Shown: positions 1 through 1,322 of the stretch, piece after piece | Layout of the letters: each line of letters begins with the position of its first letter | How positions within the stretch are numbered: the first letter of the stretch is position 1 | Source: Escherichia coli | Lineage (GTDB): Bacteria; Pseudomonadota; Gammaproteobacteria; Enterobacterales; Enterobacteriaceae | Direction: 5' to 3' (one strand) | Length of the DNA stretch: 1,551 nucleotides | Assembly: GCF_024298765.1 (NCBI RefSeq) | Contig: NZ_CP101221.1 | Position numbers and translations under genes: made by a program | Notes under the pieces: model-generated | What the model was told of the DNA's origin: nothing | The model's database searches: none | What the model saw: only the letters and a program-made list of their open reading frames with translations

Positions 1-477
1 ATGTTTATTGATTCAGAAAAACGACTGAAACAACTTTCAGATGAGGCAAAGAAAAACACCGAGGATCTCGAAGAAGCAAAGAAGAATTCAAGGTTTACAC
101 AGGTATCCCCAAAAGGTTGGGAACGCGTTCGAGAGCTGCTGAAGGATAGTCAAGGCATATCAGCACTGAAGCTGTACTCATTTTTAGCGGAGCATATCGA
201 TCCTACGTGTGGCGCTGTCGTTGCGGATCAGCAATTCCTAGCTGAAAAACTTGGAGTTAGCAGAAGCACAATTATTCGGTGGCTCAATTACTTAGAATCA
301 AAAAATGCATTAGTTAGAATCCCCGTTGCTGGTAAGGTTTGTGCGTATGCCCTCGATCCACATGAAGTCTGGAAGGGATACAACACTACGAAAAACCATG
401 CAGCGTTTGTCACTAAAACACTGGTCAACAAAGACGGTGATATTCAGCGCCGAATCATGGCCATGTTTTCAAATTGA
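1..477 (+). CDS. repA: Plasmid replication initiator protein, small winged-helix Rep (pKL1 RepA-like / RepL-like), 158 aa
   Basis: Uninterrupted ORF ATG(1-3) to TGA(475-477), the only long ORF with protein-like composition. It has a charged, Lys/Glu-rich N-terminus and a clear helix-turn-helix segment (DQQFLAEKLGVSRSTIIRWLNYLESKNALVR). Size (~18 kDa) and organisation match single-gene small enterobacterial plasmids. No HUH or catalytic-Tyr motifs typical of rolling-circle Reps are evident. If the molecule is circular, an in-frame stop lies at 1510-1512 and a GAGGG Shine-Dalgarno at 1539-1543, about 8 nt before the ATG. Family assignment is from memory, not from a search. Confidence 0.85.
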   Translation: MFIDSEKRLKQLSDEAKKNTEDLEEAKKNSRFTQVSPKGWERVRELLKDSQGISALKLYSFLAEHIDPTCGAVVADQQFLAEKLGVSRSTIIRWLNYLESKNALVRIPVAGKVCAYALDPHEVWKGYNTTKNHAAFVTKTLVNKDGDIQRRIMAMFSN

Positions 478-667: not shown

Positions 668-971
668 CCCCATCGCTGTAACACCGACGGTCTACGACCA
701 CCAACCAGCCGAATAGCTGCCTGTGCCGTGCAAATAGGCTTTGCAGGGGGCTGACGCGGTTCCTAGCGACCTGAAAGCCCCTGGTTAGGGGTATCGGCGC
801 GCCTGACCTCCTGAGAGCCTCTGTAAGCGTTTTTCGCGCCTTCCATGCCCTGACGGGCATTTAAAACCCGTTTCGTGTGTCTGAGAGCTTCTGAGCGCGT
901 TTGAGGGGCTATCTGGCGACTCATCCCCGAAAGAACAACAACGGAATCACCGACAACATGCGAGAGGTGAC

Positions 972-1032
972 ACCGCTCGCCGCAGCCCCAGCGACCGAAC
1001 GTAGTGAGCGAGTGGGCGAGGAAGCGGAAGAG
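972..1032 (-). other. ColE1-type primosome assembly / single-strand initiation (n' site)-like segment
   Basis: The minus strand reads CTCTTCCGCTTCCTCGC...TCGGTCG...GCTGCGGCGAGCGGT. This matches the pBR322/pUC segment CTCTTCCGCTTCCTCGCTCACTGACTCGCTGCGCTCGGTCGTTCGGCTGCGGCGAGCGGT in blocks of 17/17 and 15/15, in the same orientation and order relative to the bom homolog as in pBR322. It contains the AAGCGG hexamer associated with factor Y (PriA) sites. Function here is inferred from homology. Confidence 0.45.
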
Positions 1033-1068
1033 AACCGGAAACCACATTGAGCACGTACGCACTGATGC

Positions 1069-1093
1069 GGGGTGTCGGGGCGAAGCCCTGACC
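1069..1093. repeat. Left copy of perfect 25-bp inverted repeat (GGGGTGTCGGGGCGAAGCCCTGACC)
   Basis: Exact reverse complement of 1298-1322. The two copies are separated by 204 bp (1094-1297), which includes the oriT nic-like segment. Confidence 0.95.
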
Positions 1094-1260
1094 AGACGGC
1101 AAACGGAATATCGTCGCGGGTGACGGTATTACATTTGCACATCCTGTCCCGATTTCTGAGGCGTTTTAGCGGTGAACGGACGGCAAAACCATGATGGAGC
1201 TGTTGAGCGTTGAGAGCGTGAAATCTGGCAAAAATCACGGCTGGCGAGGCTTGTAGCGGA

Positions 1261-1297
1261 ATAAGCCAGTATACACTCCGCTATCGCTACGTGACTG
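1261..1297 (-). other. ColE1/pMB1-type oriT (bom) nic region, orphan (no relaxase in window)
   Basis: The minus strand reads CAGTCACGTAGCGATAGCGGAGTGTATACTGGCTTA, which as I recall it is identical over about 36 nt to the pBR322 bom/nic region. The adjacent repeat copy 1298-1322 matches the pBR322 sequence just upstream (GGGTGTCGGGGCGCAGCCATGACC) with 2 mismatches. The ColE1 MbeA nick is reported within CTGG|CTTA, i.e. between plus-strand 1265 and 1266 here. Sequence and nick position are from memory. Confidence 0.6.
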
Positions 1298-1322
1298 GGT
1301 CAGGGCTTCGCCCCGACACCCC
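1298..1322. repeat. Right copy of perfect 25-bp inverted repeat (GGTCAGGGCTTCGCCCCGACACCCC)
   Basis: Exact reverse complement of 1069-1093, 25/25. Identity stops at both ends (1297 and 1323 do not pair with 1094 and 1068). Confidence 0.95.

Follow-up and report, generated by a model that had tools for sequence, protein, structure and literature searches.

A perfect 25-bp inverted repeat at the outer ends of two probable convergent origins of transfer in a 1.5-kb pKL1-family plasmid

A 1,551-bp stretch of DNA from Escherichia coli, hereafter the window, contains a perfect 25-bp inverted repeat that brackets a nick region of the type found in the ColE1 origin of transfer (oriT). The question raised by this locus is why the 25-mer is present twice, and in opposite orientations. 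A sequence-only reading had recognised the ColE1-type nic region and a primosome-assembly (pas)-like site, and had proposed that one arm is a duplicated or converted copy of the other and that the repeat might act as an inversion switch. Our analyses bear out the nic region and the pas-like site, but neither the duplication or conversion nor the switch. They suggest that the 254-bp unit comprises two different convergent oriTs, one of the IncI-complex type on the plus strand and one of the ColE1 type on the minus strand, which share their distal 25-mer and are likely mobilised in trans, a reading to which we give a probability of roughly 0.8. The inverted repeat would thus exist because two oriTs with the same 25-nt module at their outer ends face each other, and it reads as a by-product of this convergent arrangement with a common conserved end module, not as a duplication.

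The plasmid and its inverted repeat

Megablast searches identified the window as a complete circular cryptic plasmid of the pKL1 family, Col(MG828). Identical 1,551-bp records exist in E. coli, copies in Klebsiella pneumoniae and Shigella flexneri are 99.9% identical to the window, and relatives in E. fergusonii are ~97% identical. The matching plasmids are typed Col(MG828) and mostly "mobilizable", with some relatives typed non-mobilizable. The only substantial ORF encodes a 158-aa helix-turn-helix protein, identical to a protein in the annotation of pKL1 (NC_002145), WP_000469298.1; its comparison with NCBIfam gave a weak winged-HTH similarity, which is uninformative, and the plasmid records name a helix-turn-helix protein as the only encoded product. 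The ORF list of the whole 1,551-bp plasmid includes neither a relaxase-sized ORF nor an accessory gene, and the cognate mbeABCD genes, as well as nikA and nikB, are absent in cis. An Rfam scan of the whole window found no RNAI and no other RNA family; a miRNA match over the palindrome upstream of repA was dismissed as a chance hit, and the feature studied here holds no known RNA. The elements discussed below are as follows.

1-477, plus strand: RepA of pKL1-type plasmids, the 158-aa helix-turn-helix protein (sole substantial ORF).
960-1040, minus strand: pas-like (primosome-assembly-like) segment downstream of the ColE1-type nick, with motif CTTCCGCTTCCTCGC; context, outside the repeat.
1068-1151, plus strand: probable IncI-complex oriT of K1-like subtype, consisting of the 25-mer, a NikA-type inverted repeat and the nick core (83/84 to L003, an IncI-gamma/K1 plasmid).
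1069-1093, plus strand: left arm, which is the distal 25-nt end of the IncI-type oriT (same sequence as the 25-mer located just upstream of nikA in L003 and in L004, a plasmid with the R64-like repeat subtype).
1099-1138, plus strand: imperfect inverted repeat, counterpart of the R64 17-bp NikA-binding repeat (predicted fold; identical to L003).
1135-1151, plus strand: IncI-type nick core TTGCACATCCTG/TCCCG, the slash marking the presumed nick (identical in L003 and L004).
1152-1261, no strand: 110-bp family-specific spacer separating the two nick sites (search matches and conservation profile).
1262-1322, minus strand: probable ColE1-type oriT, the 25-mer followed by CAGTCACGTAGCGATAGCGGAGTGTATACTGG/CTTA (60/60 to L005, a ColE1-like plasmid; 59/60 to ColE1, L007).
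1298-1322, minus strand: right arm, which is the distal 25-nt end of the ColE1-type oriT (repeat search, arm comparison and fold).

The repeat itself is as the sequence-only reading had described it. Positions 1069-1093 read GGGGTGTCGGGGCGAAGCCCTGACC, and a repeat search confirmed that positions 1298-1322 are the reverse complement of this sequence, the arms being 25/25 complementary and 204 nt apart. The window contains no other long perfect inverted repeat, and at its base composition chance would give only ~1e-9 perfect inverted pairs of 25 nt in 1,551 nt. On the smaller scale, the left arm is predicted to form an internal 8-bp hairpin between GTCGGGGC (1074-1081) and GCCCTGAC (1085-1092) with a GAA loop, and the same internal 8-bp hairpin is predicted for the right arm; each arm folded alone gives this local structure.

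Two oriT types facing each other

The sequence that begins with the left arm is, as judged by homology, an IncI-complex (R64-family) oriT (1068-1151, plus strand). The homology to the IncI-gamma/K1 plasmid L003, in which the matching block sits between nikA and the next gene, sets in at the 25-mer and weakens shortly after the nick core; beyond 1151, weaker IncI-type homology runs to about 1170. Homologous blocks that open with the 25-mer lie immediately upstream of nikA-nikB in L003, L004 and L027, the last of which is typed IncK2/Z, and the exact 25-mer is native to the oriTs of the first two, L027 having one mismatch. The 62 nt of 1094-1155 alone match ~1,300 conjugative MOBP/MPF_I plasmids, and when the module of a relative is used as the query, ~1,870 conjugative plasmids align over a stretch that opens at base 2 of the 25-mer and extends to the nick core. 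Of the stretch 1094-1260 that had been described as unlike pBR322, the portion 1094-1151 is therefore well-known IncI-complex oriT sequence. The claim that the second copy is an inverted duplicate of the ColE1 arm does not hold either, as this copy corresponds to the native distal end of an IncI-complex oriT.

The R64 oriT, as described by Furuya and Komano, is composed of a nick region, a 17-bp NikA repeat and a distal 8-bp inverted repeat. The window has the same order of elements and the same nick core, including the conserved R64-family sequence ending in CACATCCTG/TCCCG, and its 25-mer is identical to that of the R64-like L004. The distal 8-bp inverted repeat of the full R64-type oriT is also present, falls inside the 25-mer, and occupies the same position as in L003, L004 and L027. 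By homology with the ATCCTG nick of R64/RP4, we take the plus-strand nick to lie between 1146 and 1147. The core hairpin of the NikA-type repeat is predicted to pair 1107-1116 with 1121-1130. Unlike R64, the window carries neither nikA nor nikB in cis, and its NikA repeat is K1-like rather than R64-like (94/113 vs 100/113 over the aligned region).

This repeat is the variable portion of the oriT. The relatives of the plasmid carry at least five classes of NikA repeat, the two halves of which change together within a class, and these varied classes are flanked by a 25-mer and a nick core that do not vary. The class of the window is ~97% identical to IncI-gamma/K1 plasmids, that of another relative (L016) is 96% identical to IncK2/Z plasmids, and pKL1 represents a third class. 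From these sequence comparisons, the small plasmids appear to swap helper-specific NikA-repeat cassettes inside a constant frame.

On the opposite strand, the right arm is adjoined by a ColE1-type nic region, as the sequence-only reading had noted: the 36 nt from the 25-mer to CTGGCTTA, ending at CTTA, are identical to ColE1. The characteristic nick-region sequence CAGTCACGTAGCGATAGCGGAGTGTATACTGGCTTA is present within this 36/36 match, which is found with both L007 and L005, and the 60/60 identity of 1321 to 1262 is to L005, a ColE1-like plasmid typed with a MOBP relaxase. The homology on this side begins at the 25-mer and stops at CTTA, just past the nick, which, going by the ColE1 literature, we presume to lie between 1266 and 1265; the two putative nicks would be ~119 bp apart on opposite strands. 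A distal module with a predicted hairpin is present 5' of the nick region. The ColE1-type region matches 4,777 plasmids, 4,390 of which are typed mobilizable. In the absence of mbe genes, this ColE1-type oriT appears to be an orphan, and its relaxase would come in trans.

The layout of the ColE1/pMB1 oriT (bom/nic, MOBP5/HEN, MbeA) is thus retained in its distal hairpin module and in the pas-like site downstream of the nick, the latter confirmed by the motif at 1016-1030 on the minus strand; the pas-like segment would resemble that of pBR322. The difference from ColE1 is that an IncI-type oriT and the 110-bp spacer intervene between the nick and the pas-like site. Moreover, the loop of the arms is GAA, as in IncI and some ColE1-like plasmids, and not GCA. 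The spacer contains conserved blocks at 1168-1187 and 1228-1237. Among the matches listed for the inner segment, those beyond the ~1.4-1.8-kb kin cover only the IncI-type end, up to about position 1161 of the window (query position 68 at most), with the exceptions of a cointegrate (L008) and a 2.8-kb plasmid (L015).

When the two oriT modules of the window are aligned together, the 25-mer is common and everything beyond it is unrelated. In the single-oriT references, both IncI-complex and ColE1-type, the 25-mer is present once, and the sequence-only reading was correct in taking it to be single in ColE1-type plasmids (L005 and L007). Among ColE1-like plasmids, 24 of its 25 positions are native to L005 and L006, and the right arm of the window matches ColE1 at 23/25. 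Both oriT families therefore natively carry an almost identical hairpin-bearing 25-nt module at their nick-distal end, which would account for the repeat. In L023, L009 and L025, a 25-mer-like module is found ahead of further nick modules. The likeness of the distal module spans very different relaxases and concerns the 24-25-nt sequence itself, beyond its hairpin potential.

In the arrangement that we propose, the plus-strand oriT would be of the NikA/NikB (MOBP12) type and the minus-strand oriT of the MbeA type. Since the plasmid encodes no relaxase, it would depend on relaxases in trans, most likely by hitch-hiking on either of the two helper systems. By one route, the NikA/NikB proteins of an IncI-complex conjugative plasmid would mobilise it directly at the plus-strand oriT. 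By the other, a ColE1-like plasmid in the same cell would supply MbeA, MbeB and MbeC to act at the minus-strand oriT, in combination with a conjugative helper, and the two routes would transfer opposite strands. The 25-mer of each oriT would be transferred last and may act locally in termination, as its own 8-bp hairpin and not through a duplex with the opposite arm; in R64, the inverted repeat at the distal end of the oriT reportedly acts in the termination of transfer, according to the work of Furuya and Komano in 2000. Either oriT is probably functional, given its near-identity to functional references. In two natural cointegrates, L008 and L024, the crossovers lie inside the ColE1-type nick region, which fits an active oriT. 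L024 joins an L025-like plasmid to a Col(MG828) plasmid, and at both of its junctions the ColE1-type oriT is present as a 61-bp direct repeat.

Variation of the arms and alternative explanations

The readings that treat the two arms as a pair can be weighed by how the arms vary among relatives. We compared them in 64 units, 42 of which are unique, from Col(MG828) relatives and 48 metagenome loci. All the Col(MG828) relatives examined and the 48 metagenome loci have the same convergent layout, and the IncI-type nick core shows 0-2 mismatches across all family members, a conservation that is partly built into the sample, as the metagenome loci were gathered by exact nick cores. The arms are identical in 26 units and differ, at 1-7 positions, in 38; among the unique units the corresponding numbers are 15 and 27, again with 1-7 differences. 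Variants of the left arm (C13T, G14A and others) follow the IncI side, and those of the right arm follow the ColE1 side, with GCGCAGCCC as in ColE1 and GCGCAGCCATG as in the pMB1-like arm of L008. The same variant is found in both arms of only one unit. The arms vary independently, and neither their identity nor their pairing is maintained. Such independent variation fits two separately conserved modules, and not gene conversion or selection for pairing; concerted evolution of the arms was rejected on the table of arm variants.

The perfect identity of the arms had been taken as a sign of recent inverted duplication or gene conversion, in which one arm of a ColE1 oriT was copied from the other. 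The arms are indeed 25/25 identical here, whereas a pMB1-type arm (copy 1 of L008) differs at three positions, and the one unique unit in 42 with the T13 variant in both arms could reflect an occasional conversion event. However, the left arm is continuous with 58 further nt of IncI-type oriT and identical to the arm of conjugative IncI-complex plasmids, the right arm is native to the single-oriT plasmids L005 and L006 (24/25, plus 36 contiguous identical nt), and the arms of the relatives each track their own oriT type. With a module native to both oriT types, a copying event is not needed, and we regard it as very improbable. The selection for arm identity that had been offered as another cause is contradicted by the same drift, with non-identical arms in 27/42 unique units. 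A related question is posed by L021, a single-oriT plasmid that lacks 1076-1159 only and not the whole unit. We considered whether the IncI block was newly inserted into an L021-like ancestor, and rejected this possibility, as L021 keeps the end remnants GCGGGG and GCGTTTTAGC; judged from these remnants, L021 is more likely a secondary deletion.

The arms were also predicted to pair as single-stranded DNA, in agreement with the sequence-only reading, and they do so in the minimum-energy folds computed for both strands (-65.7 and -61.1 kcal/mol, z = -5.5 and -6.2). This pairing, together with the convergent layout kept across the family, would be compatible with a selected structure, in which a 25-bp stem of the T-strand joins its 5' and 3' ends and thereby aids recircularisation or end protection. 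Nevertheless, the strength of the folds is a trivial consequence of the perfect complementarity of the arms, which show no covariation in the comparison above. Single-oriT plasmids, such as ColE1, the IncI plasmids and L021, manage without a second copy, and a long-range stem would have to form at the expense of the local 8-bp hairpin of each oriT. The 204-nt spacer makes cruciform extrusion from double-stranded DNA implausible. The missing covariation counts against selection for pairing and not against pairing itself, because one to three mismatches would still allow the single strands to pair. A selected stem is thus improbable.

The two remaining explanations treat the unit as a recombining entity. 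In the first, the arms would invert the enclosed 204 bp as a DNA switch, with isomers that keep both oriTs and swap the strand transferred by each helper. The identical arms would regenerate both oriTs, an inverted repeat of 25 perfect base pairs is close to the shortest that homologous recombination can use, and in L025 the ColE1-type nick adjoins the pas-side flank, which is the opposite arrangement. Yet L025 has another inner segment and another partner oriT. The junction expected from repeat-mediated inversion was sought in plasmids and E. coli genomes: no isomer was found among 72,556 plasmids (PLSDB), where the sole full-length match was the cointegrate L024, and among 5,426 complete E. 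coli genomes none gave a match covering at least 80% of the junction. The orientation with respect to the flanks is the same in all 64 units, and the plasmid contains no recombinase gene, so that a switch is extremely improbable. The geometry of the unit, with 25-bp terminal inverted repeats around a body of ~250 bp, might even recall a MITE-like mobile element, but the chance of this is close to negligible. There is no target-site duplication at the flanks (left, ...TGATGC; right, AAAAGG...), and the unit is always within the conserved block 476-1325 and never seen whole in unrelated DNA, where the matches in other replicons end at single oriT modules. The deletion in L021, moreover, does not correspond to the unit.

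The convergent oriTs remain the preferred reading, and it can be asked whether their common end has a meaning of its own. The distal module common to the ColE1-type and IncI-complex oriTs and to those of L023, L009 and L025 may be an element read by a shared helper or host factor, or a recombination hinge for cassette swaps, and the inverted pair may in addition pair in the T-strand and influence termination or recircularisation. We consider this unlikely; if true, the inverted repeat would be more than a by-product.

Relation to known plasmids and significance

The closest counterparts of the window are pKL1 and the other ~1.5-kb cryptic Col(MG828) plasmids of E. coli, with which it shares RepA and the block 476-1325. 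In pKL1, the IncI-type and ColE1-type nick cores converge as they do in the window, and the differences are a NikA repeat of the class GTAATCGTAT...ATACGATTAC and the C13T variant in the left arm; the right arm as deposited contains 1-nt indels, perhaps errors of an old sequence. The oriTDB catalogue has an entry for this plasmid, oriT_pKL1, which has been placed in the oriT_R64 family (10.1101/2024.01.30.577996; PMC10123127). In our literature search, we found neither the ColE1-type partner oriT nor the common 25-mer explicitly described for the pKL1 family.

An arrangement of two inverse oriTs has a precedent in pBuzz, a rolling-circle plasmid without a relaxase that reportedly carries two inverse oriTs and was mobilised by a B/O plasmid (Moran & Hall 2019, Plasmid 101:10, as cited in PMC9282650 and PMC11389934). 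The window resembles pBuzz in being very small and cryptic, in lacking a relaxase, and in having inverse oriTs of which at least one is of the IncI-complex type, while its replicon is the pKL1-type helix-turn-helix RepA instead of a rolling-circle Rep. The window thus has what marks a 'pOriT' plasmid of the pBuzz kind, i.e. no relaxase and oriTs on opposite strands. Two rolling-circle plasmids typed ColpVC (L023 and L009) have a 25-mer-like module at the outer end of each oriT; their partner oriT on the other strand, unlike that of the window, is not ColE1-type. We take these two to be of the pBuzz kind by their size and replicon type alone. The view that the arrangement had not been described is accordingly to be revised, as dual inverse oriTs and oriT_pKL1 were both on record. 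The plasmid family, both oriT types and the dual-inverse-oriT layout are already known kinds, and the locus represents ordinary biology.

The present analysis is mostly of value for annotation. This 1.5-kb plasmid, which is abundant, is most plausibly a relaxase-less hitch-hiker that has two ways into the conjugation network. ColE1-like plasmids are efficiently mobilised by IncF and IncI1 helpers (10.1101/726927). Entry through IncI-complex plasmids directly and through ColE1-type Mob systems would help to explain the range of the family over E. coli, Klebsiella, Shigella and E. fergusonii. The family is, in addition, an example of oriT modularity, in which helper-specific NikA-repeat cassettes appear to be exchanged as the 25-mer and the nick core stay constant.

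Cointegrate junctions at the ColE1-type oriT

Our comparisons identified two natural cointegrates, in which a Col(MG828) plasmid is joined either to a ColE1-like Mob+ plasmid (L008) or to a plasmid resembling the 1,395-bp Salmonella plasmid L025 (L024). Direct repeats of the ColE1-type oriT occupy both junctions of each molecule.

ColE1-type oriT direct repeats at the cointegrate junctions
L008, 1264-1324: first repeat
L008, 6328-6388: second repeat
L024, 1386-1446: first repeat
L024, 2788-2848: second repeat

In both cointegrates, the flank switch falls in the interval from the variable positions in the 25-mer, the distal module shared by the two oriTs, to CTGGCTTA, thus placing the crossover inside the 36-nt nick region. 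This position fits relaxase-mediated oriT-specific recombination. Another possibility would be that the junctions arose instead by a homologous crossover.

Composition of the plasmid and its non-coding elements

The plasmid is composed of two blocks, one spanning 476-1325 and the other 1326-1551 plus 1-475. The former, which contains the non-coding region, the pas-like site and both oriTs, is kept at 88-96% in five loci (L013, L014, L039, L044 and L067) that carry unrelated DNA in place of the repA cassette, and its right breakpoint lies 3 bp beyond the right arm of the inverted repeat. Within the spacer between the nick sites, the segments 1168-1187 and 1228-1237 are 94-100% conserved across the 42 unique two-oriT units, while their surroundings are variable; the stretch 1084-1103 recurs as an 80% direct repeat at 1168-1187 (AGCGGTGAACGGACGGCAAA). 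The RefSeq annotation places a hypothetical protein, WP_158414302.1, at 921-1142 (-). This gene call, which overlaps the left arm as well as the pas-like site and the IncI-type oriT, is probably spurious.

Upstream of repA, the non-coding stretch 1419-1466 holds adjacent palindromes and direct repeats (TGTCGCATCCAGGGTGACACAAC / GTTGTCGCATCCTGGATGCGACAAC). On the circle these lie about 85 bp ahead of the repA start (position 1), and plausibly serve as an operator for RepA or as an origin element. An Rfam miRNA match in the same region was dismissed as a chance match.

In the metagenome contigs L028, L042, L033, L049 and L064, the two-oriT unit occurs two or three times, at intervals of about 1.4-1.55 kb. 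These contigs most likely represent either assemblies of the circular plasmid as concatemers or true multimers.

Related modules in other plasmids

Modules resembling the 25-mer form the outer end of other, opposite-strand nick-like modules in three plasmids.

Positions of the 25-mer-like modules
L023, 1581-1605 (-): ~2-kb ColpVC rolling-circle plasmid
L009, 1412-1436 (-): ~2-kb ColpVC rolling-circle plasmid
L025, 699-723 (-): 1,395-bp Salmonella plasmid

Judged by size and replicon type only, the two ColpVC plasmids are taken to be of the pBuzz kind. The partner nick-like core in L025 is ATCTTGTCCCG. Relative to the window, the layout of L025 is reversed, with the ColE1-type nick adjoining the flank on the pas side.

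L006, a ColE1-like plasmid with an IS91-family transposase, carries an IncI-type nick core with one mismatch at 2321-2337 (-). Its ColE1-type oriT is on the other strand, and the sequence beside the IncI-type core contains no 25-mer within five mismatches.

Apparent loss and exchange of the IncI-type oriT

The 1,822-bp relative L021, annotated with a RepL-type protein, lacks the IncI-type oriT (window ~1076-1159) at its positions 1540-1560, equivalent to window 1068-1170. Since GCGGGG and GCGTTTTAGC are both retained on either side, the gap looks like a secondary deletion that left a single ColE1-type oriT.

Where the IncI-type oriT is present, its NikA-type inverted repeat (window 1099-1138, and the homologous positions in L016, L026, the IncK2/Z plasmid L027 and metagenome loci) falls into at least five classes with compensatory changes, flanked by the invariant 25-mer on one side and an invariant nick core on the other. 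Distinct classes match separate IncI-complex conjugative lineages (K1-like, K2/Z and R64-like), and this correspondence suggests that helper-specific oriT cassettes have been exchanged.
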